Assembly (NCBI GenBank): GCA_043803685.1
Contig: JAZDJU010000079.1
Location: 1 to 64,000, forward strand
Reading direction: 5' to 3'
DNA from: Candidatus Omnitrophota bacterium
GTDB lineage: Bacteria; Omnitrophota; Omnitrophia; Omnitrophales; Aquincolibacteriaceae
DNA: 64,000 bases
How positions within the stretch are numbered: the first letter of the stretch is position 1; each line of letters starts with the position of its first letter. The notes below the pieces were generated by a model. The model saw only the letters and a program-made list of their open reading frames with translations, was not told where the DNA came from and searched no databases. Positions 25,734-47,447 of this stretch are shown here, piece by piece. The position numbers and the translations under genes were made by a program.

Positions 25734-26494
25734 AACGCAAGATCATCGAGATCGACCGGGAAAAATGCAACGGGTGCGGGCTTTGCACGAAGGCTTGCGC
25801 GGAAGGCGCGTTGGTCCTGGATAAAGACAACAAGGCCGTGCTTGTCAAAGAGATCTTTTGTGACGGGATGGGCGCTTGTCTGGATGTTTGTCCCGTTGAC
25901 GCGCTCAAGATCATTGAAAGGGAGAGCGACGGTTATGATCCCAAAGCCGCTTTCGATCATGTGTTGAAGACACAAGGGACTGATGCCGCCAAGAAAGTCC
26001 ACGGGGCCCCCGTACCGCCCAGCGGTGGCACTTTGCCCCATTTCGGGGGATGTCCGGGGACCATGGCTCGCGAGATCAAGCGCGAAGTTTCTGGAACCTC
26101 AGGCAGTCCGGCGGCAGGTTCTGTGGCGTCCGAGCTTAGCCAATGGCCGATCCAGTTACATCTGATCTCTCCGCTTGCGCCTTATTTCAAAGAATGCGAC
26201 CTTCTGATCGCAGCGGACTGTACGGCTTTCACTCTCGGAAGTTTCCATCAAGATATGCTCAAGGGAAAGAAACTTGTGATCGCGTGTCCCAAGCTCGATG
26301 AAACTGAAGGTTATGTCGAGAAGATCGCGGAGCTTCTAAAGCATAATACGGTTTATTCGCTGACAGTGGTGATCATGGAAGTGCCGTGCTGTACCGGTCT
26401 CTTTCGCATGGTTCAGGAGGCGGTTGCGCTTTCCGGTAAGCAGCTTCCGGTCAAAAGGGTCGTGGTCGGTCTCGATGGGGCTATCCTTGTCTGA
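25730..26494 (+). CDS. 4Fe-4S dicluster protein
   Basis: CNGCGLCTKAC and CDGMGACLDVCP; GCPG, QWPIQL, AADC, CPKLD, MEVPCC. Confidence 0.9.
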   Translation: MKRKIIEIDREKCNGCGLCTKACAEGALVLDKDNKAVLVKEIFCDGMGACLDVCPVDALKIIERESDGYDPKAAFDHVLKTQGTDAAKKVHGAPVPPSGGTLPHFGGCPGTMAREIKREVSGTSGSPAAGSVASELSQWPIQLHLISPLAPYFKECDLLIAADCTAFTLGSFHQDMLKGKKLVIACPKLDETEGYVEKIAELLKHNTVYSLTVVIMEVPCCTGLFRMVQEAVALSGKQLPVKRVVVGLDGAILV

Positions 26495-26566
26495 GATTTT
26501 ATTTCCAAAATGGTTGACAAGGATTGCCCCAATCTCAGCTTTGCTTCGATTGATTGGTATTGGGAC
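26476..26566 (-). repeat. Structured intergenic repeat family I, copy E (reverse orientation)
   Basis: 26526-26566 is 36/41 identical to the reverse complement of 47366-47406; hairpin arms 26476-26491 and 26516-26531. Confidence 0.85.
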
Positions 26567-26584
26567 GATAAGGAACTGATCTTC

Positions 26585-27379
26585 ATGAAAAAAGTCGCAG
26601 GGTTAATCTTGGCAGGGGTTCTCCTCCTCGCTCCGTCTCTTGCCGCGAGTGATACGGAAAAGGTTTTTCCGTATGCTGAAAAGCTCGCGGGAAAGATCTT
26701 TCTTGGGGAAAAGATCAAATTCGATATCAGCTACCTCGGTATGACCGTGGGGGAAGCGATCGCTGAGGTGAAAGAGATCGTCAAGGTGAACGGACGCGAT
26801 GCTTATCACATCGAGATCCAGGTCCACTCGCGAGCGATCCTTAATTGGATCTATAAGGTGCGGGACACGCACCACAGCTATATCGACGCTGAGCATTTTC
26901 ATTCCCTTCGTTACGAAAAGAAGATCCAGGAAGGCCGTTACTGGACGGACGAGTCCATGGAATACGATCAGGAGGCGCATATCGGCCGCTTCCATTCCCT
27001 CAAGGACCACAGCCGCAAGGAAATGTTCATCCCCAAGAATGTTCAGGACCAGATCTCTTGTTGTTATTGGCTCCGGCTTCAGGAAATGAAGCCCGATTCC
27101 AAAACCCTGATCCCGGTTAACGCGGATGAAAAGAATTGGGACCTTGAAGTGGTCACGCATGGCATGAAGGAAATGAAAATAGACTCTGTGGGCGTTTTTC
27201 AGGCCGTTGAGGTCGAGCCGGTCATCATGTTCGAAGGTTTTTTTGTACGACGGGGCAAAGTCAGTGGCTGGATCAGCATGGACGAGCGCCGCATCCCGCT
27301 TGTGATGAAGGTCAAAGTCCCCGTTCTCGGGGAAGTCGTTGCCACCCTCGCCCAGTACGAGCCCGGCGCAGCTTCTTGA
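26585..27379 (+). CDS. Secreted DUF3108-like protein
   Basis: Signal peptide MKKVAGLILAGVLLLAPSLA; GEKIKFDISYLG, YKVRD, WISMDERRIPL. Confidence 0.75.
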   Translation: MKKVAGLILAGVLLLAPSLAASDTEKVFPYAEKLAGKIFLGEKIKFDISYLGMTVGEAIAEVKEIVKVNGRDAYHIEIQVHSRAILNWIYKVRDTHHSYIDAEHFHSLRYEKKIQEGRYWTDESMEYDQEAHIGRFHSLKDHSRKEMFIPKNVQDQISCCYWLRLQEMKPDSKTLIPVNADEKNWDLEVVTHGMKEMKIDSVGVFQAVEVEPVIMFEGFFVRRGKVSGWISMDERRIPLVMKVKVPVLGEVVATLAQYEPGAAS

Positions 27380-27517
27380 CCGGTCGTGACGGTACCCGCT
27401 TTTGGGAGAGGCTCTCAAGGGGTCAAGATTTCCACTCGCCAAGTCGTTAGTTGGAGAGCTCAAGATGGCTGGATATTTTGACGCCAAAAAAACAGCCGGA
27501 TCACAAGGAGAAGGTCA

Positions 27518-28019
<502 letters not shown>

Positions 28020-28142
28020 ACGCCGGGAGCATGACTCGGGTTCGTGAAATGAGCGTTGATAGAATGACAGGGTCTGGCTCCTTTTGAAGGGGATTTAATC
28101 AATCTCTCCAAGCCCCAATACCGTTCAGCTAAGAACCGTTCG

Positions 28143-28188
28143 TTACACCCCGGGTGTGTAAAACCAGTTTTACACACCCGGGGTGTAA
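28143..28188. repeat. Perfect palindrome with 22-bp arms (REP doublet-like)
   Basis: TTACACCCCGGGTGTGTAAAAC-CA-GTTTTACACACCCGGGGTGTAA. Confidence 0.92.
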
Positions 28189-28308
28189 AATAGGGTTGAT
28201 GTTGCAAGAGATATGCTCTGAATTAACCCATTCTCTCTTCTTGCCCTCTGTGATAAAATCCGCCCCTGTTGATTCGAATACCGACCTACTTCGATGGAGA
28301 AATATATT

Positions 28309-28593
28309 ATGCCGACTTATGAATACGAATGCGGGGCATGCGGGCACCCGTTCGAAAAGTTCCAGTCCATGACCGATAAGCCCGTCAAGAAGTGTCCGAA
28401 GTGCGGGAAAGCCAAGGCTCAGCGCATCATCTCGGGTGGTTCGGGAGTGCTTTTCAAAGGGAGCGGTTTTTACCAAACCGATTACCGGTCCGCAGGGTAT
28501 AAGGAATCGGCCAAGAAGGATGTTCCCACAAAAGCGGCTCCGGCGGCGTCACCCTGTTCCGGTGATTGCTCGTCCTGCGAGGCCAAGAAGTAG
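28309..28593 (+). CDS. FmdB-family zinc-ribbon protein
   Basis: [29 protein letters not shown]. Confidence 0.92.
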
Positions 28594-28658
28594 CAAGGTT
28601 TCACCTCGGATTATTTCTAACCCGTTACATCTAAAGGGGTTACCCTTGTTTCCTTTCA

Positions 28659-28687
28659 TTGACACTGGTTCCCTAGGGTGTTAGAAT
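28659..28687 (+). promoter_or_regulatory. Putative sigma70 promoter TTGACA-17-TAGAAT with extended -10 TG
   Basis: Near-perfect consensus upstream of the heptose/Kdo/lpt operon. Confidence 0.75.
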
Positions 28688-28768
28688 GCGCCACGTTATT
28701 TTAAAATATGAACGGACAGGCTGATTTTCCCAAGGAAAAGTAAGCCTGTTTTCTTTTTTGAGGGACCC

Positions 28769-29788
28769 ATGAAGACCCCATCGATGCCTCTAAGCACGCT
28801 TGAAAAAAGACGCTTTCTCGAGATCCTTGAACGGTTCCAGGAAGTTCGCATTCTTGTGATCGGGGATTTCATCCTTGACCAGTTCGTCTGGGGGAGCGTC
28901 AAGCGCATTTCTCCGGAAGCGCCAGTCCCCGTCGTCAGGGTCGAACGGGAGTCCTTCATGCCCGGCGGATCGCTTAATGTCGCTAATAATATCCGTTCTC
29001 TCAAAGGGCAGGTTTTTCCTTGCGGCGTGGTGGGCCGGGATCTTTACGGGCGAGTGCTCCTTCGAGCGATGCGGAAGCAGGGGATCGAAACGGGAGGGAT
29101 CATTTGCGATCCGACGCGTCCCACGTCCCTCAAGACCCGAGTGATCGCGCATTCCCAGCAAGTGGTCCGGTTCGACCGGGAAAACACGGACGATGTTTCC
29201 AAAGCGGATATCCTGAAGATCCTGAAATTTGTCCGCGAGAACATCAAGCGCATGGATGTCGTGATCCTGGAAGATTACGGCAAAGGCGTCATGCAGCCCT
29301 TTCTCTTGAAAGAGATCGTCCGTCTTGCCAAGAAATTCAAGAAGCCCGTTCTCGTGGATCCGAAAGAAAAACATTTTGTCTATTACCGCGGCGTCACCTG
29401 TATCACACCGAATCGCAGCGAAGCCTTTAACGGCTATGAGCGGACGCACGCTTCCTCCTATAAGACGCCCACGCTTGAAGAAGTGGGTTGGGGCCTGATG
29501 AAAAAGTTGGACCTGGAGTCCGTGCTGATCACGCTCGGCGAGGACGGCATGGCGCTTTTCGAAAAAAACAAGAAATTAACCCGGGTTCCCACGGCGGCGC
29601 GTGAAGTTTACGATGTCTCCGGCGCGGGGGATACGGTGATCGCAACGCTCGCGGTCGCGTTGGCGGCGGGCGCGAAGATGCAGGAGGCCGCGAGGATCTC
29701 CAACCTTGCCGCCGGCATCGTGGTCGGGAAACTGGGCACCGCGACGATCGTTCCCGAAGAGCTCGAAGAAGCGATCCGGAAGGCATGA
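28769..29788 (+). CDS. rfaE1: D-glycero-D-manno-heptose-7-phosphate kinase (HldE kinase domain only)
   Basis: GDFILD, RISPEAPVPV, DYGKG, VDPK, TPN, VYDVSGAGDTV, VGKLGTA. Confidence 0.92.
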   Translation: MKTPSMPLSTLEKRRFLEILERFQEVRILVIGDFILDQFVWGSVKRISPEAPVPVVRVERESFMPGGSLNVANNIRSLKGQVFPCGVVGRDLYGRVLLRAMRKQGIETGGIICDPTRPTSLKTRVIAHSQQVVRFDRENTDDVSKADILKILKFVRENIKRMDVVILEDYGKGVMQPFLLKEIVRLAKKFKKPVLVDPKEKHFVYYRGVTCITPNRSEAFNGYERTHASSYKTPTLEEVGWGLMKKLDLESVLITLGEDGMALFEKNKKLTRVPTAAREVYDVSGAGDTVIATLAVALAAGAKMQEAARISNLAAGIVVGKLGTATIVPEELEEAIRKA

Positions 29789-30528
29789 GCGCGAGTCCTG
29801 TGAAGGCTCTGGGCGTTATTCCCGCACGATTAGGTTCCACCCGTTTATCTGAAAAGATCCTCCGTTCTATTCATGGCAAGACTATGATCCAGCATGTTTG
29901 GGAGCGCGCACGTCAAGCGAAAAGGCTCGAAGAGGTGGTCGTCGCCACGGACGATGCTCGGATCCAACAATGCGTGGAAGGGTTCGGCGGCCGGGCGATC
30001 ATGACGCGCAAGGACCATCCGAACGGGACTTCCAGGATCGCGGAGGTCATGGGCTCCTTCAAGCAGGATCTCGTGATCAATATCCAGGGCGATCAGCCGC
30101 TCGTAGACCCCAAGGCGCTCGACGAGATGGTGGCTATTTTTGAGACGGCGAAGGATGTGGAGATGTTGACCCTGGCCGTGAGGATGACGGACCGGGCAAG
30201 TTTCGAGAACCCCAATGTTGTTAAAGTGGTCTGTGATGCGGAAGGGGACGCGCTTTATTTTTCGCGCGCGACGATCCCCTTCGTTCAGGGGAAACAAAAT
30301 GGCGCGTGCAGTTTTCTGAAACACCTCGGAGTTTACGGATACCGGCGTGATTTTCTTTTGAATTTTGTTGCTTGGGAGCCTGGAATCCTGGAAAATACCG
30401 AGAAATTGGAGCAACTCAGGGTCCTTGAAAGAGGGCATTCCATTCGCGTGATCGAAACGGCGTATGATTTCATCAGCGTGGATACGGAAGAGGATCTTCG
30501 GGAAGTTGAAAGACGTTTGCGGAACTAA
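29785..30528 (+). CDS. kdsB: CMP-Kdo synthetase
   Basis: IPARLGSTRL, NIQGD, PNVVKVV, ALYFSR, HLGVYGY, EKLEQLR. Confidence 0.96.
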   Translation: MSASPVKALGVIPARLGSTRLSEKILRSIHGKTMIQHVWERARQAKRLEEVVVATDDARIQQCVEGFGGRAIMTRKDHPNGTSRIAEVMGSFKQDLVINIQGDQPLVDPKALDEMVAIFETAKDVEMLTLAVRMTDRASFENPNVVKVVCDAEGDALYFSRATIPFVQGKQNGACSFLKHLGVYGYRRDFLLNFVAWEPGILENTEKLEQLRVLERGHSIRVIETAYDFISVDTEEDLREVERRLRN

Positions 30529-30534
30529 TTTTCT

Positions 30535-33137
<2,603 letters not shown>

Positions 33138-33141
33138 GATC

Positions 33142-34113
33142 ATGAAAACATCCCCTGTGATACGGCTCGCCAAAGAGGTTCTCAGGATCGAGGCTCTCGC
33201 CATTTCGCGACTGCGTTCCCGGATCGGCAAGGATTTTGAAACAGTCGTTCAGTGGATGGCGGACTGCAAGGGCCGTGTGATCCTTACCGGGATGGGGAAG
33301 CCCGGCTTCATCGCCCGCAAGATCGCTGCGACGATGGCTTCGACCGGTACGCCCACTTTTTTTCTTCATCCTGCTGAAGCGGTGCACGGCGATCTCGGCA
33401 TGGTGACTTCGAAGGACTTGGTGATCGCGATCTCTCAGAGCGGGGAAAGCGAAGAGATCGTGAGGCTTCTTCCGCTTCTCAAGAAAAAAGGCGTGAAGCT
33501 TGTCGCGCTGACAAGCGTTCCGAAGTCCGCTCTCGGCAAGAACGCGGATATTGTGCTGGATCTTGGCGTGCGGCGCGAAGCCTGTCCTTTGAATCTGGCG
33601 CCTTCCGCCTCAACGACGGCTTCGCTCGCGATGGGGGACGCGCTTGCTCTTTCGCTTCTCAAGAAAAAAGGGTTCCGCTCTGAAGATTTCGCGGAACTGC
33701 ATCCTGGAGGGAGCCTTGGAAGACGATTGCTCAAGGTGGGGGAGATCATGCGCACGGGGAAAGCCAATCCGCTCGTGGGGGTTAAGACCACGGTGCGTCA
33801 GGCGCTTCTCAAGATCACGGCCTCGCGGGCCGGGAGCTGTACGATCATTGATAAACACGGAAAATTATTGGGCGTTTTCACCGACGGAGACCTCCGGCGT
33901 CATCTCAAGTCCCAGGGTGAAAAGATCCTGAACCGTCCTGTCATTCAATTAGCCACGCTTCGACCCCGTTACATTCAGAAAGAGAAACTCGCGGAAGAGG
34001 CGTTCCATGTGATGGAGTCGCTTCGCATCGACGAATTGCCTGTGGTGGACAAAGCACGGCGTGTCGTAGGCCTTTTGGACGTTCAGGACCTGATGAGGGC
34101 GGGACGGGTCTGA
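33142..34113 (+). CDS. kdsD: Arabinose-5-phosphate isomerase (SIS plus CBS)
   Basis: GMGK, HPAEAVHGDLG, EACPLNLAP, HPGGSLG, FTDGDLRR. Confidence 0.94.
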   Translation: MKTSPVIRLAKEVLRIEALAISRLRSRIGKDFETVVQWMADCKGRVILTGMGKPGFIARKIAATMASTGTPTFFLHPAEAVHGDLGMVTSKDLVIAISQSGESEEIVRLLPLLKKKGVKLVALTSVPKSALGKNADIVLDLGVRREACPLNLAPSASTTASLAMGDALALSLLKKKGFRSEDFAELHPGGSLGRRLLKVGEIMRTGKANPLVGVKTTVRQALLKITASRAGSCTIIDKHGKLLGVFTDGDLRRHLKSQGEKILNRPVIQLATLRPRYIQKEKLAEEAFHVMESLRIDELPVVDKARRVVGLLDVQDLMRAGRV

Positions 34114-34120
34114 TCTTCTC

Positions 34121-35053: not shown

Positions 35054-35119
35054 CATTTGAAATTAGGGGTATGCGGTATAGTACTGTTAACCCCTAAAAT
35101 CAAATAGAGAACAGTACTA
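35045..35119. repeat. Structured intergenic repeat family II, copy A (75 bp)
   Basis: 65/75 identical, ungapped, to 37384-37458. Confidence 0.92.
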
Positions 35120-35138
35120 AGGAGAAAGTGAAGCGCTC

Positions 35139-37382: not shown

Positions 37383-37383
37383 A

Positions 37384-37560: not shown

Positions 37561-38025
37561 ATGAAGATCACCGATTTTCTCAACGTCAAGGGCATCAAGG
37601 TCGATCTCGAAGCGACCGACAAGGAGGGGATCCTCAAAGAAATGGTGGATCTTTTGGCCGAGGTGAAGGATGTGGGAGACAAGAAGAACATTCTGCGAGC
37701 CTTGGTCGAGCGTGAGAATCTGGGCTCCACGGGCATTGGCCAGGGGATCGCGATCCCTCATGGAAAGACCGACAAGGTGGATGGTCTTGTGGCGGTGTTG
37801 GGTGTGAGTCGCAAGGGCGTGAACTTTGAAGCGCTCGACGGCGAGCCGGTCTATATCCTGTTCCTGCTTGTTGCTCCGAAGGACACGGCGGGGCCCCATC
37901 TCAAGGCTCTGGCGCAGATCTCAAGGCTTCTCCGCGATACCTATTTCTGCGAACTTATCAGAAAATGCAAAACGCCGAAGGATGTTTTTGATCTGATCGC
38001 AAAAGAAGAGAGCCGCAAGGTTTGA
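37561..38025 (+). CDS. ptsN: PTS EIIA (Ntr/Fru type)
   Basis: RENLGSTGIGQGIAIPH, FEALDGEPV, HLKALAQISR. Confidence 0.85.
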   Translation: MKITDFLNVKGIKVDLEATDKEGILKEMVDLLAEVKDVGDKKNILRALVERENLGSTGIGQGIAIPHGKTDKVDGLVAVLGVSRKGVNFEALDGEPVYILFLLVAPKDTAGPHLKALAQISRLLRDTYFCELIRKCKTPKDVFDLIAKEESRKV

Positions 38026-38059
38026 TATACGGTCTTAGCCGGTTCTTTGGCGACCTTCT

Positions 38060-39319
38060 ATGAAATTTTTTAAGTGGTTCTATCCCGGTATCGGGATCAA
38101 GCGGTGGATCATTCTTTGCGCGTTGGGGCTCGGGTTCATCGTACTGGTGGCCCTGCTGACCGTGCAGACCATGGCCAAAACGAGCGTGCTACTGGCCTCG
38201 TTCGCGACGGCGCTTTTGATCCTCGGTATCTTTCTCATCTATACCTCGATCAAAAACATGGTCCGGATCTTTGTCCGTGCTCTGATGCCCTTGAATGGGA
38301 ACGATTCGCTTGTGGATATCGTGTATCAGAAACGCCGCGTCGAGTCTTTGTTGCACGGGCCTCGAATTGTGGCGATCGGTGGCGGAACCGGCTTAAGTAC
38401 CATGCTTTCGGGCGTCAAGGTGTTTACGAGCAATATCACGGCGATCGTGACAGTGACGGACACGGGGGGAAGTTCCGGGCGTTTGCGCGATGAAATGGAT
38501 ATGTTGCCTCCGGGCGATATCCGGAATTGTCTGGTGGCGCTAGCCGACGCAGGGCCGCTCATTCGTGATCTTTTTCAGTACCGGTTCGAACTCGGAGAGG
38601 GATTGAAGGGACACAGTTTCGGGAATCTCTTCATCACAGCGCTTTCGAAGGTCACGGGCGATTTTGAGAAAGCGATCGCGGAATCCAGCAAAGTGCTAGC
38701 GATCCGGGGGCGCGTGCTTCCGTCCACGCTTGAAAAAGTGACGCTGGTTGGCGAATTCATGGACGGGACCTCGGTGGAGGGAGAAACGAATATTACGGAC
38801 CTGAAAAAGCCGCTTCGCAGTATTCGTCTCCGGCCGGACGATTGCAGGGCGTGCCAGGAGGCCCTAGACGCGATAGAGATCGCGGATCTTATTCTGATGG
38901 GCCCTGGAAGTCTTTATACGAGTATTTTGCCGAATCTTTTGATCAAGGATATTCGCGATGCTGTACTCCGGTCTGACGCGTACAAGGTCTATATCATGAA
39001 CGCGATGACGCAGCCGGGGGAGACCACGGGTATGAGCGCGTGGGATCATTTAAATGTGATCCTGGAACATACGGATCCGAGGATCGTGGATGCCTGTTTT
39101 GTGAACACTGCGGTTATTCCGGACACCATGCTTCAGCGTTACGCCAAGCAGGGTGCCACCCCGGTGAAACTGGACATTGAGAAGATCCGGGAAAAGGGTT
39201 ACCGGGTCATTCAGGGGAATGTCCTTCAACCGGGAGAGCAGGTCCGCCATAATTCGGAGCTTTTGATGAAATTCATTCTGGAACATTACAGGGATCATGT
39301 CGAACGGACGGAAGAATGA
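38060..39319 (+). CDS. yvcK: YvcK/CofD-like (gluconeogenesis factor family) protein with N-terminal TM helices
   Basis: IGGGTGLS, GGSSGRLR, PPGDIRNC, GHSFGNL, GPGSLYTS, TQPGET. Confidence 0.9.
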   Translation: MKFFKWFYPGIGIKRWIILCALGLGFIVLVALLTVQTMAKTSVLLASFATALLILGIFLIYTSIKNMVRIFVRALMPLNGNDSLVDIVYQKRRVESLLHGPRIVAIGGGTGLSTMLSGVKVFTSNITAIVTVTDTGGSSGRLRDEMDMLPPGDIRNCLVALADAGPLIRDLFQYRFELGEGLKGHSFGNLFITALSKVTGDFEKAIAESSKVLAIRGRVLPSTLEKVTLVGEFMDGTSVEGETNITDLKKPLRSIRLRPDDCRACQEALDAIEIADLILMGPGSLYTSILPNLLIKDIRDAVLRSDAYKVYIMNAMTQPGETTGMSAWDHLNVILEHTDPRIVDACFVNTAVIPDTMLQRYAKQGATPVKLDIEKIREKGYRVIQGNVLQPGEQVRHNSELLMKFILEHYRDHVERTEE

Positions 39320-39624
39320 CGCAGCCCCTAAAAAAACAACGTAAGAAGGACGGCCAGGAATCGGTCGAACGTGTTTTTGTCATCAATAATAAGCTGGGTC
39401 TTCACGCCCGGCCGGCGGCCGTCTTTGTCCAGACCGCGAATCGTTTTAACGCCCTGGTTGAGGTCCAAAAGGAAGATCTCAAGATCGACGGGAAGTCGAT
39501 CATGGGCATCATGACCCTCGCGGCCGAGAAAGGTTCTTCCATCACGGTGCGGGTCACGGGGAAAGATGCCATCGCGACGATGGAAGCGTTAGCCAAACTT
39601 ATCGAGTCTGATTTCGGAGAATAA
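39316..39624 (+). CDS. ptsH: Phosphocarrier protein HPr
   Basis: NKLGLHARPAA, DGKSIMGIMTL. Confidence 0.95.
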   Translation: MTQPLKKQRKKDGQESVERVFVINNKLGLHARPAAVFVQTANRFNALVEVQKEDLKIDGKSIMGIMTLAAEKGSSITVRVTGKDAIATMEALAKLIESDFGE

Positions 39625-39628
39625 GGCC

Positions 39629-41377
39629 ATGAAAGAATACAAAGGGATCGGAGTATCGCCCGGGATCGCGATCGGGAAAGTTTTTATCCTGCATAGCGGT
39701 GGTTCCTTCAATCTTCCCAAGCGCGTGGTGGGACTGGATCAGCTCTCTAACGAGATCGCCCGGTTCGAGGAAGCGCTCACGCGGACGCGCACCGAGATCC
39801 TCGGGATCCGAAGAAGACTGTCGGATCAGATCGGCCGCGAAAGTTCGGACATTTTTACGGCCCATCTTTTGATCTTGGAGGACCGGACCCTGATCGAGGA
39901 TGTGATCGAAGTGATCAAGGGCGAGAAGGTTGGCGCGGAGTACGCCTTTGCGGCCGTGATCCAGCGGTATTTTCAGGCCTTTTCCCAGATCAATGACGAA
40001 TATCTCAAAGAGCTCATCTCGGACATCCGGGATGTGGGGAGACGGCTTCTCGCGAATCTTTGCGGAGAAGAGAAAAAGCGTCTGGAAGAATTCAGTGGAA
40101 AGGTGATCATCGCCTCTCACGATCTTTCGCCGTCCGACACAGCTTCCCTTGACCGGAAAAAAGTCATGGCTTTTGTGACCGAGATTGGCGGAGCGACGTC
40201 GCATACGGCGATTCTCGGGCGTTCCCTTGAGATTCCCGCCGTCGTGGGACTCGAAAAGATTGTGGATGAACTTCAGGACGGCGATACGATCATTGTGGAC
40301 GGGGCGCACGGGGTCGTGGTCATTGATCCCGACCAGGCGACCATCGACAAATTCAACTTTCAGGAGAACCGCATCTCCCAGCTCACCGGAGAGCTGGATA
40401 AGCTGCGCGATTTACCGGCGGAGACTCTCGACGGAAAACACATCACCCTTGCCGCCAATATCGAATTTTATCACGAGGCGGCTTCCGTCATTTCTCATGG
40501 CGGAGAAGGGGTCGGACTTTTTCGTACGGAATATTTTTACATGAACCGGTCGACGCTTCCGACGGAGCAGGAACAGTACGAGGCTTATCACAAGATCGCG
40601 GAGGCGATGAAGCCGCATCCCGTGGTCATTCGCACACTGGATCTTGGGGGCGATAAATTCGCGTCCACGCTCGAGATCCCGCATGAAATGAATCCTTATC
40701 TGGGCTGGCGCGCCATCCGTTTTTGCCTGACGCGAACGGACATCTTTAAGACCCAGCTCCGGGCGATCCTTCGGGCGAGCGCTCATGGGGATCTGAAGAT
40801 CATGTATCCGATGATTACCGGTGTGTACGAGATCCGTGCCGCGCGCGAGATCCTGAATGAAGCGAAGGCCGAGCTTGAAAAGGAAGGCGTTCCCTTCAAT
40901 AAGAACATTCACGTTGGGGCCATGATCGAGATCCCTTCGGCGGCGCTCGCAAGTGATGTGCTGGCCAAGGAAGTGGATTTCTTTTCTCTCGGGACGAACG
41001 ATCTGATCCAGTACGTGCTTGCGATCGATCGTATGAATCAGAAGATCGCCCATCTTTATGAGCCGACCCATCCGGCGATCGTTCGTCTGATCGATCTGAC
41101 GATCCGGAACGGTCACGGTCATAACATCTGGGTGGGGAGTTGCGGCGAAATGTCCTCGGATCCGGCGATCGCGATCCTCCTCGTGGGGCTCGGGATCGAC
41201 GAGATCAGCGCTAGCCCTGTGATGCTGCCCAAGATCAAGAAAGCGATCCGTTCGATCCGTTATTCCGACGCTAAGGAGATCGCCCAAAAGGCCCTTGCGT
41301 TCCATACCGGCAAAGAGACCTACGCTTTCCTCAAGGAAAAGCTCAAGGATGTGTGCGCGGAGCTTGCTGACGAATAA
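39629..41377 (+). CDS. ptsI: PTS enzyme I
   Basis: GGATSHTAI, GVGLFRTE, IRTLDLGGDK, NPYLGWRAIR, SLGTNDL, CGE. Confidence 0.95.
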   Translation: MKEYKGIGVSPGIAIGKVFILHSGGSFNLPKRVVGLDQLSNEIARFEEALTRTRTEILGIRRRLSDQIGRESSDIFTAHLLILEDRTLIEDVIEVIKGEKVGAEYAFAAVIQRYFQAFSQINDEYLKELISDIRDVGRRLLANLCGEEKKRLEEFSGKVIIASHDLSPSDTASLDRKKVMAFVTEIGGATSHTAILGRSLEIPAVVGLEKIVDELQDGDTIIVDGAHGVVVIDPDQATIDKFNFQENRISQLTGELDKLRDLPAETLDGKHITLAANIEFYHEAASVISHGGEGVGLFRTEYFYMNRSTLPTEQEQYEAYHKIAEAMKPHPVVIRTLDLGGDKFASTLEIPHEMNPYLGWRAIRFCLTRTDIFKTQLRAILRASAHGDLKIMYPMITGVYEIRAAREILNEAKAELEKEGVPFNKNIHVGAMIEIPSAALASDVLAKEVDFFSLGTNDLIQYVLAIDRMNQKIAHLYEPTHPAIVRLIDLTIRNGHGHNIWVGSCGEMSSDPAIAILLVGLGIDEISASPVMLPKIKKAIRSIRYSDAKEIAQKALAFHTGKETYAFLKEKLKDVCAELADE

Positions 41378-41487
41378 AGGAATAATGTCTTTTGTATTCA
41401 AAACAAAAGAAATCGAACTTTGCAAATATTTTTCCGCAACTTGGTGGAAGCGCTCAAAGCGCTTCCTATCTCTAACGGGGTGAGATC

Positions 41488-42252
41488 ATGAGCCTGAAAG
41501 TCGTTATTCTCTGCGCGGGATACGCGACGCGTCTTTATCCTCTGACCGAAAATATGCCAAAGCCCCTGCTTCCCGTGGGGAAAAAGCCCATCCTGGAGTG
41601 GATCCTGGAACGTGTCGAGAAAGTCCAGGGCGTGGAGGCTGTTTATCTTGTAAGCAATCAGAAATTCGCGGGGCATTTTGAAACATGGACGGCGAAGGCG
41701 AAATATCCCTGGCCGGTGCAGGTCGTCAACGATCAAACTACGAGTAATGAGACCCGTCTCGGGGCTATCGGAGATCTCGCGTACGTGATCAAGGCGAAAA
41801 AGGTCGATCCTTGCGATCTTCTGGTGATCGCGGGGGACAATTTCTTCGATTTCGACCTGATGTCCTTCGTCCATTTCGGAATGAAAAAGAGACCGCACGG
41901 AGTGATCGCGGTCTATGACGTCGGGGACAAGGAATTGGCCAAGCGTTACGGTCTGGTGAGGACCGATGGCGGGGGGAAGATCCTGGAATTCCAGGAAAAG
42001 CCGCTCCAACCGGCCACGACGCTTGCCTCCAGCGGCATTTACTGGCTTCCCCAGGAGACGTGGAGCTTGCTTGACAGGTATATCGCAAGCGGCCATAATA
42101 CCGACCAACCCGGCCATTATATGCGTTGGCTGGCTGAAACATCAGGCCTCTTCGCTTTTTCTCTTAAGGGAAAATGGTTGGATATCGGTGACCTCGCCTC
42201 TTATCAGAAAGCCAACGCCATCGTCAATACCCCAACAAATCCAAAGGAGTAA
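41488..42252 (+). CDS. Sugar-phosphate nucleotidyltransferase family protein
   Basis: [34 protein letters not shown]. Confidence 0.9.
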
Positions 42253-42259
42253 CACCACT

Positions 42260-43447
42260 ATGAAAAAAGGGCATTATTTCTTCACTTCTGAGTCTGTTTC
42301 CGAAGGACATCCGGACAAGGTCTGCGATCAGGTCTCGGACGCGATCCTGGACGCCTATCTTGCGGGGGACCCCGCGTCTCGCGTAGCCTGCGAGTGCTTG
42401 GCCACGACCGATCGTTTGACCATTGCCGGCGAGATTACGAGCAAGACGAAGGTCGATGCTGAGAAAGTGGCGCGGAACACGATCCGCAAGATCGGCTATG
42501 TGGACCCTTCGATTGGTTTCGATTACAAGACTTGTAAGATCGATATCGCGCTTCATACCCAGTCGCCTGATATCGCGATGGGCGTGGATACCGGTGGCGC
42601 CGGGGACCAGGGCATGATGTTCGGCTATGCGACCGATGAGACGAAAGAACTCATGCCGCTTCCGATCATGCTGGCTCAAAAGTTGGTCCGCTATCTGGCC
42701 GCAGTCCGGAAATCGGGCAAGATCAAGTATCTCCGGCCGGATTCGAAGAGTCAGGTTACAGTCGAGTATGACAACGAAAAACCCGTTCGCGTCGAAGCCG
42801 TGGTTCTGAGCTCCCAGCATGACGGGGATGTAACGCTTCCGACGATCACGAAGGATCTGATCGAGAAAGTCATCAAAAAGGTCATACCGGCCAATTTAAT
42901 GGACAAGAACACCAAAATCTTCATCAATCCGACCGGGCGTTTTGAGGTCGGTGGACCGCATGGGGATACAGGGCTCACAGGCCGCAAGATTATCGTCGAT
43001 ACCTACGGCGGCATGGGCCGTCACGGCGGTGGCGCGTTCAGCGGAAAAGATCCTTCGAAGGTGGACCGTTCGGCGGCCTATTTCGCGCGCTACGTGGCCA
43101 AGAACATCGTGGCTGCGGGTCTCGCGGGCAGTTGCGAGATCCAGGTGTCTTATGCGATCGGTGTGGCGAAGCCCGTTTCGATCCGCGTGGACACGTTCGG
43201 GACGAACAAGGTCAGCGAAGAGGCGATCTCGGAAGCCGTGACGAAGATTTTCGATTTTACGCCACGCGGGATCATCAGTACGTTGGATCTGCGCCGCCCG
43301 ATCTACAACATGACGGCAGCGTATGGACATTTCGGGCGTAGTGAAGCCGGTTTTACCTGGGAAAAGACCGACAAGGTGGCTGCGCTCCGCAAAGCCCTGA
43401 AACTCAAAGACAACTGTTGCTGCAGCAAAGTCACCTGCGCGGCTTAG
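42260..43447 (+). CDS. metK: S-adenosylmethionine synthetase
   Basis: [51 protein letters not shown] before ATG 42260. Confidence 0.98.
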
Positions 43448-43461
43448 TTCCGATTCTCGGT

Positions 43462-43498
43462 ATCGCGGGGTCACGTTGTGACCCCGCGATCTGTTATT
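43462..43498 (+). terminator. Perfect 13-bp stem-loop after metK
   Basis: ATCGCGGGGTCAC-GTT-GTGACCCCGCGAT followed by CTGTTATT. Confidence 0.6.
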
Positions 43499-43526
43499 AA
43501 TGGTAACCCAACACAAAAAAGAAAAA

Positions 43527-43619
43527 GGCCATGATAATCCCAATGCGATTCAATTTTAATAAAGTTGAAATTGGGGCTGTCATGGTCAACCTTATGAGAA
43601 AGAACTCTTAGACCATGAC
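43527..43619 (+). repeat. Structured intergenic repeat family I, copy C (includes the ahcY start codon)
   Basis: GGCCATGA..TCCCAAT...ATTGGGGC-TGTCATGGTC-AACC...TAGACCATGAC, colinear with 47356-47447. Confidence 0.85.
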
Positions 43620-45054
43620 GAAGACCTCCCCCAAAAAAACTCCTGCTCTTAAATTGAAGAACGATTTCAAAGTCGCGGACCTCTCGTTAGCCGCCTGGGG
43701 GCGTAAAGAGCTCGACATGGCCGAGAAAGAAATGCCGGGACTCATGGCAACCCGGAAAAAGTACGGATCCCAGAAACCTCTCAAGGGCAAGCGGATCATG
43801 GGCAGTCTCCACATGACGATCCAGACCGCGGTCCTGATCGAAACCTTGATCGAGCTCGGCGCCGACGTGCGTTGGTGCTCCTGCAATATCTTCTCCACCC
43901 AGGATCATGCTGCCGCGGCTTTGGCCGTAAAGGGCATTCCGGTATTTGCATGGAAGGGAGAGACGCTAGAAGAATATTGGTGGTGCACGCTTCAGGCGCT
44001 CAACTTTCCAGGAGGCAAAGGGCCGAACCTCATCGTCGATGACGGCGGTGACGCGACTCTCATGATCCATCTGGGTTATGACGCGGAAAAGGATCCGAAG
44101 ATCCTCAATCAAAAGGTCGAGACGCAGGATGAGATCGAACTTTTCAAGCTCCTGAAAATGGTCATGAAGGCAGAACCTAAGAAATGGCACGGAGTGGTCA
44201 AAGAGTGGGAAGGTGTTTCCGAGGAAACGACCACGGGTGTCCACCGTCTGTACAAGATGCAGGAACAGGGAAAGCTTCTCGTTCCAGCGATCAACGTGAA
44301 CGATTCGGTGACAAAATCCAAGTTCGATAATCTCTACGGATGCCGTGAATCCCTGGCAGACGGCATCAAGCGCGCGACGGACGTGATGATCGCGGGCAAG
44401 GTTGCCGTGGTGTTGGGTTATGGGGACGTGGGAAAAGGCAGCGCCCAGGCCATGCATGGTTTCGGAGCTCGTGTGATCGTGACCGAGATCGACCCGATCT
44501 GTGCGCTTCAGGCCACGATGGCCGGCTTTCAGGTGGCGAGGCTCGAGGACGTGCTGGATATTGGGGATATCTACGTAACGACGACCGGGAATATAGACGT
44601 CATCACCGCCGAACATATGTCCAAGATGAAGGACGAGTCCATTGTTTGTAATATTGGGCATTTTGATAATGAGATCCAGGTCGCCCAGCTCCAGAAATGG
44701 CCGGGCATCAAACGGATCAATATCAAACCACAAGTCGATAAGTATATTTTCAAGGACGGGCATTCGATCATTCTGCTTGCCGAAGGCCGTCTCGTGAACC
44801 TGGGCTGTGCTACGGGCCATCCGAGTTTTGTGATGTCGAATTCGTTCACGAATCAGACGCTCGCGCAGATCGATCTTGTGATGAATCCCAAGAAGCCCGG
44901 CGTTTACCGTCTTGAGAAGAAGCTTGATGAGGAAGTGGCCCGGCTCCATCTCGATAAATTGGGCGCCAAGCTCACGAAACTCACGAAAAAGCAGTCCGAG
45001 TATCTGGACGTTCCTTTCGACGGTCCTTACAAGCCCGAGCACTACAAGTACTAA
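43615..45054 (+). CDS. ahcY: Adenosylhomocysteinase
   Basis: [47 protein letters not shown]. Confidence 0.98.
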
Positions 45055-45137
45055 ACGGGTTGTCGCGGCGTCTCATTCCAGGCTGGCCTTCCGGTAACGG
45101 TTCGTTGGTTTTGTGTCTATTTCCATAGGAGAGGTTC

Positions 45138-46280
45138 ATGCAGAATTTTGTGTTTAAAAATCCCACGGAGATCCTTTTTGGCAAGGGAATGATCCGTGAG
45201 ATCTCAGGGCGCGTTCCAAAGGATCTTGGCGTCCTTTTTCTCTACGGGGGCGGGTCGATCAAAACAAATGGCGTCTACGCACAGGTCAAGTTGGCTCTTA
45301 AGGGCTTTCGTGTGACCGAGTTCGGCGGGGTCGAGGCGAACCCGCTCTATGAAACCTGTCTTAAGGCTGTCGAAGTTGTTAAGAAGGAAAAGATCGGTTT
45401 TATTCTGGCAGTGGGGGGCGGCTCTGTCCTGGATGCCGGGAAATTCATCGCGGCCGCCGCGTGTTTTAGCGGTTCAGAGCTTTGGGCCATTCTTCGAGAG
45501 CACGGGGCCAATGTCAAAGCGGCGCTCCCGATCGGGACCGTTCTGACGCTTCCCGCGACGGGTTCTGAAGCGAATGGGAATTCGGTGATCTCCCGCGGCG
45601 CGACCCGGGAAAAACTACATTTTTTCTCACCGCATGTGTTCCCTCATTTCTCAGTGTTGGATCCTGAGACGACATTCTCTTTACCTGAGAAGCAAGTGCG
45701 CAACGGGATCGTGGATGCGTTTGTGCATGTGATGGAACAGTACATGACGTATCCAGCGCATGCTCCCCTCCAGGACCGGATGGCGGAATCGCTTCTCCAG
45801 ACCCTGATCGAGGTGGCGACGTTAACCTTGAAGAAACCCAAGGATTATGAAGCTCGCGCGACCTTTATGTGGAGCGCGACGCTCGCGCTGAATACTTTGA
45901 TCGGATGCGGCGTCCCTCAGGATTGGTCGACGCACATGATCGCTCATGAGCTGACCGCTTTCTACGGGTTGGATCACGCGGAGACGCTCGCGATCGTTCT
46001 TCCCGGGGTCTGGCAGTACAAACTGACCGCTAAAAAGAAAAAGTTGGAACAATACGGCGTTCGTATTTGGAACGTTAAAACCGCCAAAGAGGCCATTGTG
46101 AAGACGGAGGCGTTCTTCCACTCTCTCAAAATGCCGACACGATTTGGCGACTACAAGATCTCCGCCAAAGAGGCTTCCGGAAAGATCCGCGAACGTTTCG
46201 CGGAACGAGATTCCGTGTTTGGCGAACATAGCGACATCACGGCGGACGCCGCGGCAAAGATCATTGCTTCCCGGGCCTGA
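45138..46280 (+). CDS. Iron-containing alcohol dehydrogenase (YqhD/BdhA-like)
   Basis: NPTEILFGKG, GGGS twice, TLPATGSE, DAFVH, THMIAHE, HAETL. Confidence 0.92.
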   Translation: MQNFVFKNPTEILFGKGMIREISGRVPKDLGVLFLYGGGSIKTNGVYAQVKLALKGFRVTEFGGVEANPLYETCLKAVEVVKKEKIGFILAVGGGSVLDAGKFIAAAACFSGSELWAILREHGANVKAALPIGTVLTLPATGSEANGNSVISRGATREKLHFFSPHVFPHFSVLDPETTFSLPEKQVRNGIVDAFVHVMEQYMTYPAHAPLQDRMAESLLQTLIEVATLTLKKPKDYEARATFMWSATLALNTLIGCGVPQDWSTHMIAHELTAFYGLDHAETLAIVLPGVWQYKLTAKKKKLEQYGVRIWNVKTAKEAIVKTEAFFHSLKMPTRFGDYKISAKEASGKIRERFAERDSVFGEHSDITADAAAKIIASRA

Positions 46281-46304
46281 ACTTTTTATCAAAAGGATAT
46301 TGCT

Positions 46305-47324
46305 ATGACCAGGACAAAGATCATTTGCACGTTGGGCCCCGCGTCGGGCCGGGCCAGTGTTTTGCGGCAGATGATGCGCGCGGGAATGGATGTGGTGAGA
46401 CTTAATTTTTCTCACGGGACGCTCGCGGAGCATGAGGAGAAAATCCGTCTCGTCAGGATGCTGAACAAGAAATACCGTCGCCATATCCGCATCCTCGGAG
46501 ATCTCGAAGGTTATCGCATGAGGATCGGCGAGTTGAAGGGACGACAGCCGCTCGAGGTGAAAAAACGGCAGGTGCTTTGCCTTACCACGGAAAGTATCGT
46601 TGGAGAGGGGAGCCGCATTCCTTTTGATTGGGCGGGTTCTCTCGGGCCGATCAAACCCGGGCAGCACATTTTTATCGATGACGGTCTTATTGTCCTCAAG
46701 GTCGAGGCTTGCGACGCGAAGAATCTCAAGACTCGCGTGATCGTGGGGGGCAGGATCAAGGAACGGAAAGGGATCAATATTCCCGGCGTGCGGCTCGATG
46801 TGACGGGGCTGACCCGGAAGGACAAAGAGGATATCCATTTCTGCATCGAACATAAAATAGATTATATCGCGCAGTCCTTTGTACGGAACAAACAGGACAT
46901 TTTAGACCTCCGGAATCATCTCAAAGGTCATTCCCATACCTGCTCGGTGATCGCCAAGATCGAGAACCGGGAAGGAATTCGCAACATCGATGAGATCCTC
47001 AGTGTTTGTGAGGGGATCATGGTCGCGCGAGGGGACATGGGAATCTCGATTCCGATCTATGAGGTGCCCTCGGTCCAGAAGAAGATCATCAGGAAATGCA
47101 ATAAGGCGAAAAAGTTCGTGATCACGGCGACGCAGATGCTTGAGAGCATGACCGAGCATCCGATCCCGACGCGTGCGGAGGTTTGCGATGTGGCGAACGC
47201 GATCCTTGATGGAACGGACTATGTGATGCTTTCCGCCGAGTCCGCCGCGGGGCTTTATCCCGTTCAATGCGTGGAGATGATGAACCAGATCATTAAATTC
47301 ACCGAAAAAAATCCTTCAGCGTAA
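46305..47324 (+). CDS. pyk: Pyruvate kinase, short form lacking the C-terminal domain
   Basis: [47 protein letters not shown]. Confidence 0.93.
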
Positions 47325-47341
47325 TTAACATTCTTCTTTAT

Positions 47342-47447
47342 AGAAAAGAACCCTAGGCCATGACAGTCCCAATACCAATTAATCGAAGCGTAGCGAAGAT
47401 TGGGGCGGCCATGGTCACCTTAATGGAAAAGAATCGTAGACCATGAC
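47342..47447 (+). repeat. Structured intergenic repeat family I, copy D (includes the ABC-F start codon)
   Basis: Colinear with copy C; 36/41 match to inverted copy E; internal direct repeat GAAAAGAA.C.TAG(G/A)CCATGAC. Confidence 0.88.

Follow-up and report, generated by a model that had tools for sequence, protein, structure and literature searches.

Among described systems, those closest to the repeats analyzed here are the IS200/IS605 insertion sequences and their gene-less derivatives (PATEs), on which the excerpted texts of PMC3201880 and PMC3597680 also bear. In the engineered IS608 described in the excerpt of PMC5934647, bases that directly follow the left-end hairpin on its 3′ side had been altered so as to pair with target sequence upstream of the cleavage site; in wild-type IS608, according to the same excerpt, those bases are buried in a second small hairpin. 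As these partial texts present them, IS200/IS605 elements and PATEs have hairpin-based ends, insert directly 3′ of a short specific sequence, and read target and own end via bases beside the hairpin, partly by non-canonical pairs, traits to which the family described below is akin; in IS608, bases 3′ of the hairpin can extend recognition, and an arm X with its partner X′ stands at that place in our family. REP, BIME and REPIN repeats are likewise short, abundant, hairpin-forming, gene-less and sometimes clustered, in genomes with Y1 HUH proteins (partial texts of PMC8266576 and PMC3333891).

The present family departs from these systems in several respects. Unlike IS200/IS605 elements, which have left- and right-end hairpins, one unit consists of a single scaffold hairpin and an X/X′ hairpin, its target equals the element’s own 3′ end, that end and the hairpin are not separated by a linker, the family has no linked TnpA, and no TnpB was found in the G000 genome. 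PATEs insert 3′ of a fixed short target, leaving no classical duplication, and have sub-terminal hairpins; the tail here differs among lineages of one family, with insertion directly 3′ of a lineage-specific 3–7 nt equal to the element’s own end. The family resembles the Correia/NEMIS repeats of Neisseria and the Rickettsia palindromic elements, which are ~100 nt long, non-autonomous and present in many copies, and affect the expression of neighboring genes; gene-end or in-frame insertions of bacterial MITEs are tolerated. The family differs from bacterial MITEs in lacking both clear terminal inverted repeats and a target duplication of fixed length, and from DDE-type MITEs in that its repeated triplet is lineage-specific, part of the stem and paired with the head of X; no parent IS with matching ends was found in G000. 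Integron attC core sites (R″/R′) read RYYYAAC and GTTRRRY and lie in cassette arrays beside an integron integrase; these motifs were not evident in a 26-copy alignment of the family, and no cassette array surrounds the copies.

The window, a 64,000-nucleotide stretch of an Omnitrophota contig, holds three repeats, located where a sequence-only reading had placed them and with X and X′ strings as that reading wrote them. All three belong to a mobile DNA element, 84 bases long and so far undescribed, that occurs in Omnitrophota bacteria. In each unit a conserved scaffold hairpin (TCCCAAT..ATTGGGG) is followed by the 11-nt arm X, which an A-rich spacer separates from its pairing partner, the arm X′. 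The full, type-B copy at the 4Fe-4S (Fe-S) gene (26481–26565, reverse strand), supported by a profile search and by its filled or empty state among relatives, divides into scaffold (26565–26527), X CAATCCTTGTC (26526–26516), spacer (26515–26492) and X′ GACAAGGATAG (26491–26481); its left flank GTTCCTTATCG (26566–26576, reverse strand) runs on into native GGAACTGA of the displaced gene end, and the copy folds with 15 pairs around one mismatch. On the forward strand, the full, type-A ahcY copy (43538–43621) is made up of scaffold (43538–43576), X CTGTCATGGTC (43577–43587), spacer (43588–43610) and X′ GACCATGACGA (43611–43621), and is preceded by a left copy GGCCATGATAA (43527–43537) that represents the displaced original ahcY start region; an orthologous insertion is present in G012 and a spacer-plus-X′ remnant in G018. 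The full, type-B ABC-F copy, also on the forward strand (47367–47449) and filled in 10 of the 18 genus genomes examined, consists of scaffold (47367–47405), X CGGCCATGGTC (47406–47416), spacer (47417–47438) and X′ GACCATGACCG (47439–47449), with an older X′-like copy of the ABC-F start, GGCCATGACAG, to its left (47356–47366). Upon recount, the scaffolds of the two type-B copies match at 34/39 positions, in place of the 36/41 given earlier. Pfam confirms ahcY, ABC-F, the 4Fe-4S protein and DUF3108.

The repeat family is far beyond chance palindromes. A profile search with nhmmer returned 89 matches in the 2.89-Mb genome, 54 near-full and 35 partial. Within Omnitrophota the repeats are restricted to a single GTDB family, with dozens of copies per genome in at least four genera. 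Unit length is sharp, at 83–84 nt. Copies are mostly intergenic, some lying inside gene ends and tRNA genes; most are not upstream of a same-strand gene, and most are not at tRNAs; tandem arrays are present in which modules overlap by the 3-nt tail. In 39 parsed copies, which carry 32 distinct X 11-mers, 389/429 X/X′ cells pair (shuffle mean 288.7, maximum 316, 2000 shuffles). The 26-copy alignment has invariant TCCCA.T and T.GGG.C, two-sided changes in 10/11 X/X′ pairs and 6/7 inner scaffold pairs, and a covariation score of 0.448 against 0.175 shuffled, a value reached by 0/500 shuffles, with slid controls at or below 0.087. The compensated change in X that had been seen among the window copies thus extends genome-wide: X is not constant, and it covaries with X′ in both the parsed copies and the alignment. 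Stem position 2 is occupied by alike, not complementary, bases (A.A in 13 and T.T in 6 of the 39 copies), and forward-strand G.T pairs number 28 against 14 A.C pairs.

The earlier proposal of a small non-autonomous mobile element is borne out by orthologous sites that are filled or empty and by copies nested within other copies. In all five nested copies, excision of 83–84 nt gives back a full outer element (nhmmer E-values 1e-13 to 8e-24), the inner tail equals the 3 nt preceding the insertion, and the target has only the last 3–4 nt of X′ in common, the body of X′ being absent; the same scaffold-loop position (..CGG^AAATTGGGG) was struck each time. The whole unit moves, X′ included. At one compared site, filled in G005 and empty in G004, only TAG is common to both. 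More generally, the element sits directly 3′ of host sequence identical to the final 3–7 nt of the X′ that it carries (8 or more at ahcY), and this tail match between target and X′ leaves a short direct repeat around scaffold, X and spacer. The tail triplet is lineage-specific (TAG, CAG, CGG, TGG or CTG) and is paired with the head of X. The X′ tail equals the last 3 nt of the left flank in 24/41 G000 copies and in 31/40 copies from 10 other genomes, these 40 having been chosen by model score (shuffled mean 15.4, maximum 22, 2000 shuffles); in the latter set the identical runs span 3 nt (17 copies), 4 nt (8), 6 nt (4), 7 nt (1) and 11 nt (1). Identity extending to at least 6 of the next 8 nt was observed for 5/41 G000 copies (shuffled mean 1.1, maximum 4).

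The sequence-only reading had further remarked that the outer arm overlaps gene ends. This is so for the ATG of ahcY, the ATG of ABC-F and the last codons of the Fe-S gene, but for the most part the supposed mirror of host sequence is element sequence standing in for displaced ends. A copy of the tail comes to lie toward the gene, so that X′ mends insertions falling a few bases within it. A new start codon comes from the ATGAC lineage, the final 7 nt of tRNA-Val are rebuilt by the GGGCGG, GCGCGG and GGGCAG lineages, and new last codons with a stop come from the TAG lineage. At the Fe-S site, filled in three genomes (G000, G005 and G004) and empty in nine, X′ encodes the last codons of the 4Fe-4S gene (..A-I-L-V), with the stop TGA within the spacer; the protein ends in ..IR(N/S/H) where the element is absent, versus ILV in the filled gene. 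Only GGATAG(C) of this X′ is native, 5/11 nt being missing from empty sites, and in a comparison of locus L207 with L214, L216 and L209 the G005 left flank still reads GGATAG(C), a 7–10-nt direct repeat with the X′ tail. An MscS-like gene, filled only in G000 and empty in G004, G005 and G010, starts MPVSS without the element, versus MTA with it, and the empty sites lack the ATG-bearing X′. The tRNA-Val 3′ ends include both filled and empty sites; the matching 7 nt pre-exist when empty, and the direct repeats overlap the restored tRNA end. Empty ABC-F sites already hold the matching 7 nt, ATGACNG, and empty ahcY sites (G/A)(G/A)CCATGA. In the displaced ahcY start region, a stretch of 20 nt (aaaaaagaaaaaGGCCATGA) shows no difference from the start region in use in G006.

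In the ahcY copy, the ATG within X′ (43615) opens the 477-aa AhcY frame, and that within the ABC-F X′ (47443) opens the 600-aa ABC-F frame; these new start codons are predicted from the frames alone, in which TTG at +32 (ahcY) and GTG at +11 (ABC-F) are possible starts. A 26-codon upstream ORF at ahcY (43531–43611, forward strand) leads from the displaced ATG through the element to a stop TAG 3 nt before the new ATG, and the corresponding 28-codon ORF at ABC-F (47360–47446, forward strand) ends in a TGA that overlaps the new ATG (ATGA). Judging from their sequences, both may be translated: the displaced old start codon would open a short ORF ending at the new ATG, where ribosomes would continue by coupling.

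Taken together, the likely explanation is a gene-less, ~84-nt, two-hairpin mobile family that inserts after a match to its own tail, the tail patching displaced gene ends. Besides the lack of a linked enzyme, the even orientation of the copies and the alike bases at stem position 2, further observations count against it: tail identity of variable length (3 to at least 11 nt) also fits enzyme-free template switching, and GACCATGACG, present at ahcY in five empty genomes, may be native or a footprint, which the tree does not separate.

The ATG in the X′ arm of three genes, downstream of a purine-rich spacer, together with strong covariation and the excess of G.T pairs, would also suit a cis-acting RNA module instead of mobile DNA, such as a 5′ leader or a terminator, with the start codon hidden by X. 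Against this stand the majority of copies, not upstream of a same-strand gene, the antisense orientation of the unit at tRNA-Val and the Fe-S gene, the nested copies, tandem arrays and filled and empty sites across relatives, and an Rfam scan in which the family matched no described family (0 matches at gathering score over the whole window, 0 at E ≤ 1 over 43300–47600). We regard an RNA module as extremely improbable; a regulatory by-effect at single loci may occur.

The sequence-only reading had also envisaged that X would, in every copy, be complementary to the site of insertion in the host. In the guide-templated form of this idea, mobility is limited to scaffold, X and spacer, X′ belongs to the host in every case, and X serves as a programmable complement of the site. 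Agreeing with this, X′ overlaps the ends of ahcY, ABC-F, the Fe-S gene and tRNA-Val, much of X′ pre-exists at some empty sites, and extended identity between left flank and X′ is enriched. The expectation that X′ pre-exists at empty orthologous sites held for its flank-side part at tRNA-Val, ABC-F and ahcY, but 5/11 nt of X′ are absent from empty Fe-S sites, its ATG-bearing form is absent at the MscS-like gene, and its body is missing from all five nested targets. Identical X′ strings (GACAAGGATAG and AGTTTGGGCGG) recur at unrelated loci, and the A.A or T.T mismatch is conserved and inherited in both arms. Where X and X′ are non-complementary at position 2, the base in the left flank agrees with X′ in 27 cases, as against 5 in which it agrees with the Watson–Crick complement of X; the target follows X′, of which only the tail matches. 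Because the bases at this position are alike, plain Watson–Crick guiding by X does not explain target choice, and a guide-templated element is highly improbable.

No cognate enzyme gene lies in the window, as the sequence-only reading had stated, and the enzyme-carrying relative it had suggested looking for (RAYT/HUH, IS110 or other recombinase) was sought, with none found linked to the family. Among 18 recombinase and transposase loci in G000, a family copy occurs within 3 kb only at one Y1-like gene, catalytically degenerate (motifs RIH and F), with one copy beside it. No family sequence occurs within 3 kb of any of the six DDE loci in this genome, and PF01548 (DEDD transposase, IS110/IS1111) was absent from the search of this 91% complete genome. 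In two Y1 proteins of G000, both HUH and Tyr are intact. None of 30 genus Y1 loci is bracketed by TCCCAAT units; a full copy lies within 1.5 kb of 5/30, in no constant arrangement. Four of 20 genus genomes have no Y1 match, and one of these, G006, is rich in copies, which counts against the preferred explanation.

These data bear on a classical REP/BIME or REPIN family served by a RAYT. Copies are numerous, mostly intergenic, hairpin-forming and in part arrayed, and three RAYT-like Y1 genes are present in G000, scoring 52–57 bits against NF047646, under its cut-off of 80. However, the unit has two unlike hairpins and not an inverted doublet, the 26-copy alignment is without a conserved 5′ tetranucleotide of the GTAG kind, and copies lie within gene ends and tRNA genes. 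Other inverted repeats accompany the intact Y1 genes, located at C72 and C16, the genus RAYT-like group is flanked by GTACACACCCGGTGTGTAC palindromes, and no RAYT among the genus loci examined is flanked by the family’s own repeats. The array of REP/BIME units homogenized per locus, the other option of the sequence-only reading, therefore fits poorly, and we consider a RAYT-served family quite unlikely.

Islands that target tRNA genes cut into the 3′ part of the tRNA, carry replacement bases and have a direct repeat at both ends. The direct repeats over the restored tRNA-Val 3′ end resemble this, and G000 has about nine tyrosine recombinase genes, several adjoining tRNA genes, as would suit a mini-element mobilized by a tyrosine recombinase, CIME-like or a satellite of such an island, with the X′ tail as att core. 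Tyrosine-recombinase overlaps measure 6–8 bp, longer than the 3–4 nt in common at most element insertions; the core differs among lineages, 0/9 tyrosine recombinase/integrase loci of G000 lie within 3 kb of any copy, and dozens of dispersed, non-tRNA targets for an 84-nt unit with no linked integrase are unlike both site-specific integration and tRNA-targeting islands. Integrase mobilization is very unlikely.

Enzyme-free spread, by template switching or short-homology recombination at 3–11 nt with hairpins kept by quasi-palindrome correction, is compatible with the varying length of junction identity, the tandem arrays with 3-nt overlaps, the lack of any enzyme linked to the family in the loci searched, and copies without strand bias. 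IS200/IS605 elements are reported to be orientation-biased, whereas family copies stand 26:26 relative to local GC skew, a weak test since skew follows gene strand (r 0.88) in this draft genome. Set against such spread, one loop position was hit five times with 3–4 nt identity despite many other microhomologies, unit length is sharp, dozens of copies per genome occur across genera, and each lineage has its own tail triplet, which pairs with the X head, so that we judge it unlikely.

For the tail-matching mobile family, we propose a mechanism that, on its own, is tentative: movement as a single strand or circle by a structure-reading strand transferase of the HUH/Y1 kind. The X′–scaffold junction would zip with X into one long hairpin, and the transferase would swap the element tail for the identical tail in the target, with both tails aligned in turn by the first three X bases, much as guide and cleavage site work together in IS200/IS605. 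The bases 3′ of the IS608 left-end hairpin extend target reading and X occupies the same position, so the geometry supports the preferred explanation.

A further reading, which we hold to be doubtful, is that of a DNA element that retargets itself in nature, much as IS608 was engineered for long targets: the 3′-end triplet and the matching X head, with longer pairing optional, would set integration, and lineages would retarget by changing them. If true, lineages that carry a start codon or a tRNA-Val 3′ end as a repair patch could land harmlessly in the opening bases of essential genes, and translation from the displaced start codon would run across the element to the new ATG.

The three repeat copies named in the sequence-only reading are present with the sequence described, in a draft genome (G000; 2.89 Mb in 133 contigs, 52% G+C) of which the window is contig C79. 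Each copy, at the Fe-S gene (26481-26565, reverse strand), at ahcY (43538-43621, forward) and at the ABC-F gene (47367-47449, forward), is a unit of 83-85 nt with four components: the scaffold, a conserved hairpin (TCCCAAT ... ATTGGGG); an 11-nt arm, X, with C as its first base; a 22-24 nt spacer opening with (A)CC and continuing as an A-rich stretch, often GGAAAAGAA; and a second 11-nt arm, X', the pairing partner of X. The inner scaffold stem occurs as type A (TTTCAAC nnn GTTGAAA) or type B (TCGAAGC nnn GCTGAGA), and X type and scaffold type are reassorted relative to one another among the G000 copies. Single-strand folding of the three window units returned two hairpins, the scaffold and X/X'. 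Across 39 parsed copies, which carry 32 distinct X 11-mers, 389 of 429 X/X' cells were paired (361 Watson-Crick, 28 G.T), against 288.7 on average and 316 at most when partners were re-dealt in 2000 shuffles. A 26-copy alignment displayed two-sided changes at 10 of the 11 X/X' pairs and 6 of the 7 inner scaffold pairs; its covariation score was reached by none of 500 shuffles, and the signal was lost when the partners were slid. The exception is position 2 of the X/X' stem, non-Watson-Crick in 22 of the 39 copies (A.A in 13, T.T in 6). A pure RNA role for the unit is an unlikely rival explanation. Rfam gave no match to the window at the gathering score and none to 43300-47600 at E<=1, and the sequencing runs listed comprised three DNA runs with genome shares of 0.05-0.07 and no RNA run with the genome.

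The family is abundant and lineage-restricted. A profile built from 47 seeds (E<=1e-3) located it at 89 places in G000, 54 near-full and 35 partial, the latter mostly the X-spacer-X' hairpin alone; orientation relative to GC skew was 26:26, a weak test that revealed no strand bias. A covariance model, scored up to a cap in each genome, detected the family in 12 of the 13 genomes sampled from the genus of G000. Several further genera belonging to that GTDB family carry it too (20 of 47 genomes); beyond it, two genomes gave single weak matches and the remaining 128 of the 151 Omnitrophota genomes searched gave none. Pattern scanning of genome contigs yielded at least 119 loci; 11 true members were among the matches listed, all but one from records titled Omnitrophota or Omnitrophica. 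In the literature searched, we found neither a published description of such a family nor a paper pairing Omnitrophota with 'repetitive element'. Six near-identical composites of ~265 nt in G000 each combine three X-spacer-X' hairpins with one scaffold, all with GCAG tails (C31:6012-6107, C31:10665-10801, C61:10383-10519, C98:61528-61664, C114:3564-3655 and C123:5403-5665). The composite is missing at the C123 site in six relatives, and element arrays therefore seem to move as units. A separate copy at C98:21308-21391 lies in an open frame inside a 5359-codon stop-free stretch, so that either the unit was inserted in frame into a giant gene or it joins two ORFs. Among 41 copies, the frame through the element is open in 20 for one phase, in 10 and 11 for the other two, and in 13-19 on the opposite strand, with no clear signal of reading-frame bias.

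Mobility is directly visible in nested copies and in orthologous sites. Five G000 copies are nested in the scaffold loop of another copy, always immediately before AAATTGGGG, and excising the inner 83-84 nt recreates a full outer element in all five (E 1e-13 to 8e-24). Identity between the target and the inner X' is limited to the final 3 nt (5/5) or 4 nt (2/5). Comparison of G000 with 19 other genomes of the genus furnished clean filled and empty pairs. The Fe-S site is empty in nine genomes, where the gene runs ..GGGGCTATCCGGAAC TGA with the ATG of the next gene 5 nt on, and the protein ends in ..IR(N/S/H); in the filled genomes (G000, G005 and G004) the end is ..ILV. A direct repeat, GGGGCTATCC, still flanks the element on both sides in G005, and the native part of this copy's X' (GACAAGGATAG) is GGATAG(C) only. 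For an MscS-like gene on contig C106, the empty sites of G004, G005 and G010 read GGAGG..ATGCCGGTATCGTCCAC(C/A)G|T(T/C)CAAAC, with ACNG the only bases in common with X'; in G000, the element is placed after ..TCCACGG and its X', AGTCATGACGG, brings an in-frame ATG, so that the predicted protein start becomes MTAQT, not MPVSSTVQT. At a plain intergenic site, filled in G005 and empty in G004, the common bases are TAG only. The site of a copy on contig C74 is empty in G005 and G004, with GACTG common to the X' tail; this copy was rejected as a fourth start-codon case, the frame that it opens being merely 17 codons long. At four further C123 sites, divergence of the intergenic DNA (~78% identity) prevented the boundaries from being placed to the nucleotide. 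Taken together, these comparisons show that the unit is mobile and that X' travels along with it.

Where the unit lands follows a short rule: a brief stretch identical to the element's tail lies directly before it. The triplet ahead of the scaffold is the same as the one closing X' in 24 of 41 G000 copies, and in 31 of 40 copies picked by model score from ten other genomes; re-dealing the pairs of this second set 2000 times gave 15.4 on average and never more than 22. In the ten-genome set, the identical run extends over 3 nt in 17 copies, 4 in eight, 6 in four, 7 in one and 11 in one; longer identity (>=6 of the next 8 nt) was seen in 5 of 41 G000 copies (shuffles: mean 1.1, maximum 4). The tail triplet is lineage-bound (TAG, CAG, CGG, TGG or CTG) and lies opposite the first three bases of X. 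Template switching at microhomology is a less likely rival explanation, which the varying length of the identity would also fit; against it stand the lineage-bound triplet and the repeated use of one scaffold-loop position by the nested copies. Where X and X' are non-complementary, it is X' that the flank matches, not the base that would pair with X by Watson-Crick rules. At position 2, the flank equals X' in 27 cases, the complement of X in 5 and neither in 7, in a pool of 68 copies of which 27 came from loci chosen on other grounds. X thus complements the tail only insofar as it complements X'.

Units also lie at the ends of tRNA genes. A G000 copy located at the contig end of C92 lies directly against a tRNA-Val(GAC) gene encoded on the opposite strand; the last 7 nt of its X' (TGCGCGG) form the 3' end of the tRNA, with a repeat of AGACCTGCGCGGT to the left. 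Genus-wide, several tRNA-Val genes have units at their 3' ends, some sites bearing two in tandem, and the X' tail tracks the acceptor sequence (GCGCGG, GGGCGG, GGGCAG). Empty tRNA-Val sites read AATCTGGGCGG in G010 and G006 and AATCTGGGCAG in G009, and the G031 copy is decayed, its X no longer matching. GGGCGG is also contained in the X' types most frequent in the rest of G000 (AGTTTGGGCGG and GACTTGGGCGG). Integrase-mediated recombination is an unlikely rival explanation for the family; no family copy was found within 3 kb of the tyrosine recombinase gene of the window. That gene, at 14447-14965, has a 293-aa frame (Phage_integrase, 170 bits), and other G000 integrases adjoin tRNA-Glu, tRNA-Thr, tRNA-Met and tRNA-Pro. 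A gene-less element of ~125-150 nt, built around a central catgacacatgtcatg palindrome, interrupts tRNA-Val genes in their 3' part and is accompanied by tRNA-end duplications of 20-45 nt (loci L202 in G012, L195 in G016 and L198 in G015; G000 C92 ~13918-14040); a look-alike follows tRNA-Arg at C104:13371.

Ten of 18 genus genomes carry a unit at the ABC-F site. Scaffold type differs among them, and the insertion point is constant, after ATGACNG, splitting codon 3 between its G and its T. Of the 8 unfilled genomes, 7 likewise have ATGACNG; the exceptions at this start are the unfilled G009 (ATGGTCC) and a genome of another family (ATGCCCG). An X'-like copy lies left of the element, often with a spacer-like leader, and G017 carries two full units in tandem. 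X and X' vary among genomes yet remain complementary, as in G008 (CGGTCATTGTT with AACAATGACCG). The upstream gene also varies, the break falling exactly at the element, and recurrent landing sites are in this way gene-order breakpoints. The ahcY site is filled in G000 and G012, and G018 retains spacer and X' only; unfilled sites read (G/A)ACCATGAC(G/A) in five genomes and (G/A)(G/A)CCATGAA in five. The start region in use in G006 is matched exactly by the 20 nt left of the G000 ahcY unit. A tree asking whether MT-type ahcY starts are native or footprints left 8 of 14 inner branches open, and AhcY loci from metagenome contigs, at most 88% identical and so too remote to serve as empty-site comparisons, were left out. 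The gene preceding ahcY is followed, just past its stop, by a perfect 10-bp palindrome (GCGGGGTCAC gtt GTGACCCCGC, window 43461-43489), possibly a terminator or else a repeat of another kind. In all three G000 start-codon cases, a short frame begins at the old, displaced ATG, crosses the unit and ends at a TAG 3 nt before the new ATG (ahcY) or at a TGA overlapping it (ABC-F, MscS-like); alternative start codons occur 11-32 nt further in. From the reading frames we infer that the short frames are translated and that the ATGs supplied by X' are the working starts. Gene ends are replaced by element sequence, and nested and tandem products exist. The mirroring of gene ends by X that the sequence-only reading reported is a real pattern; the guide-directed targeting offered there as one of two alternatives is not supported, and the guide-like appearance is largely accounted for by the element overwriting gene ends.

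We consider it probable that the family is, in general, a mobile unit that inserts behind a sequence identical to its tail and replaces gene ends. How it moves can be modeled from the pairing. In a circle or tandem joint, X' would abut the scaffold, so that X' with TCCCAAT could zip onto ATTGGGG with X into one long hairpin, the spacer serving as closing loop; a target with the same end triplet could then displace X' from X and be swapped for it. This exchange mirrors site reading by IS608, in which cleavage sites are reported to be read by element bases beside the hairpin, partly through non-canonical pairs (PMC5934647). The same study describes engineered complementarity just 3' of the left-end hairpin that led to 12- and 17-nt targets, and a wild-type element in which the bases 3' of that hairpin are hidden in a second small hairpin (PMC5934647). 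G000 encodes two Y1 proteins with HUH and Tyr intact (C72:67164-67847 and C16:13869-14381), and we found no link between them and the TCCCAAT family. Linkage to Y1, tyrosine recombinase, DDE_Tnp_1 or rve genes was likewise absent, save for one degenerate Y1-like gene, and the IS110 DEDD and TnpB families were not found in G000. Given the missing Y1 link, we rate an HUH mechanism of movement well below the general account, as a tentative and rather doubtful proposal.

In its working, the TCCCAAT family is nearest to a gene-less element of the IS200/IS605 type, from which its single scaffold hairpin, the lack of a cognate TnpA and, on a weak test, the absence of a strand bias seem to set it apart. 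A DDE-type MITE was rejected as its class. A classical REP/RAYT system, in which the units would be REP sequences served by a RAYT, is a further, unlikely rival; by their features the units do not form a REP/REPIN family. RAYT-like genes do occur in these genomes: intact ones are flanked by GTACACACCCGGTGTGTAC palindromes (L258 in G009, L251 in G011, L257 in G003). Downstream of the RAYT-like gene comes a conserved ~90-nt unit, possibly a gene for a small RNA, that combines a TATAAT box with a hairpin and a run of T. A Y1-like protein in G000 (C106:35521-36186; L042 1399-2064) has HUH as RIH and the catalytic Tyr as Phe; this form is conserved (L244, L245), is fused to a 200-aa C-terminal part in G005 and G007, and looks like a domesticated, non-catalytic RAYT relative. 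GIY-YIG proteins were rejected as the family enzyme; one small GIY-YIG gene lies 100 nt from a nested TCCCAAT array in G000, and these genes, found in or beside tRNA genes, are part of a separate element that has a tRNA duplication of its own, 34 nt long. One GIY-YIG mini-gene, encoding 78 aa and accompanied by small hairpins, lies within tRNA-Gln(TTG) at C40:49820-50253 (L397 1388-1821), where the first 34 nt of the tRNA gene are duplicated upstream as a dead stub, followed by the intact gene; two further small GIY-YIG ORFs adjoin tRNA-Gln(CTG) and tRNA-Lys (C129:10283-10489 and C104:5613-5825).

To our knowledge, Omnitrophota are known from metagenomes only, and to them is added an abundant, uncharacterised mobile element. 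An 84-nt element is tolerated a few bases inside the essential ahcY, ABC-F and tRNA-Val genes because the missing end is supplied by the element itself, and ends supplied in this manner affect gene calling and start-site prediction in these genomes. Target choice appears to be encoded in the element's own DNA and to be lineage-specific, which, if borne out, raises the importance of the element; were its enzyme found, the family would constitute a very small programmable integration system.
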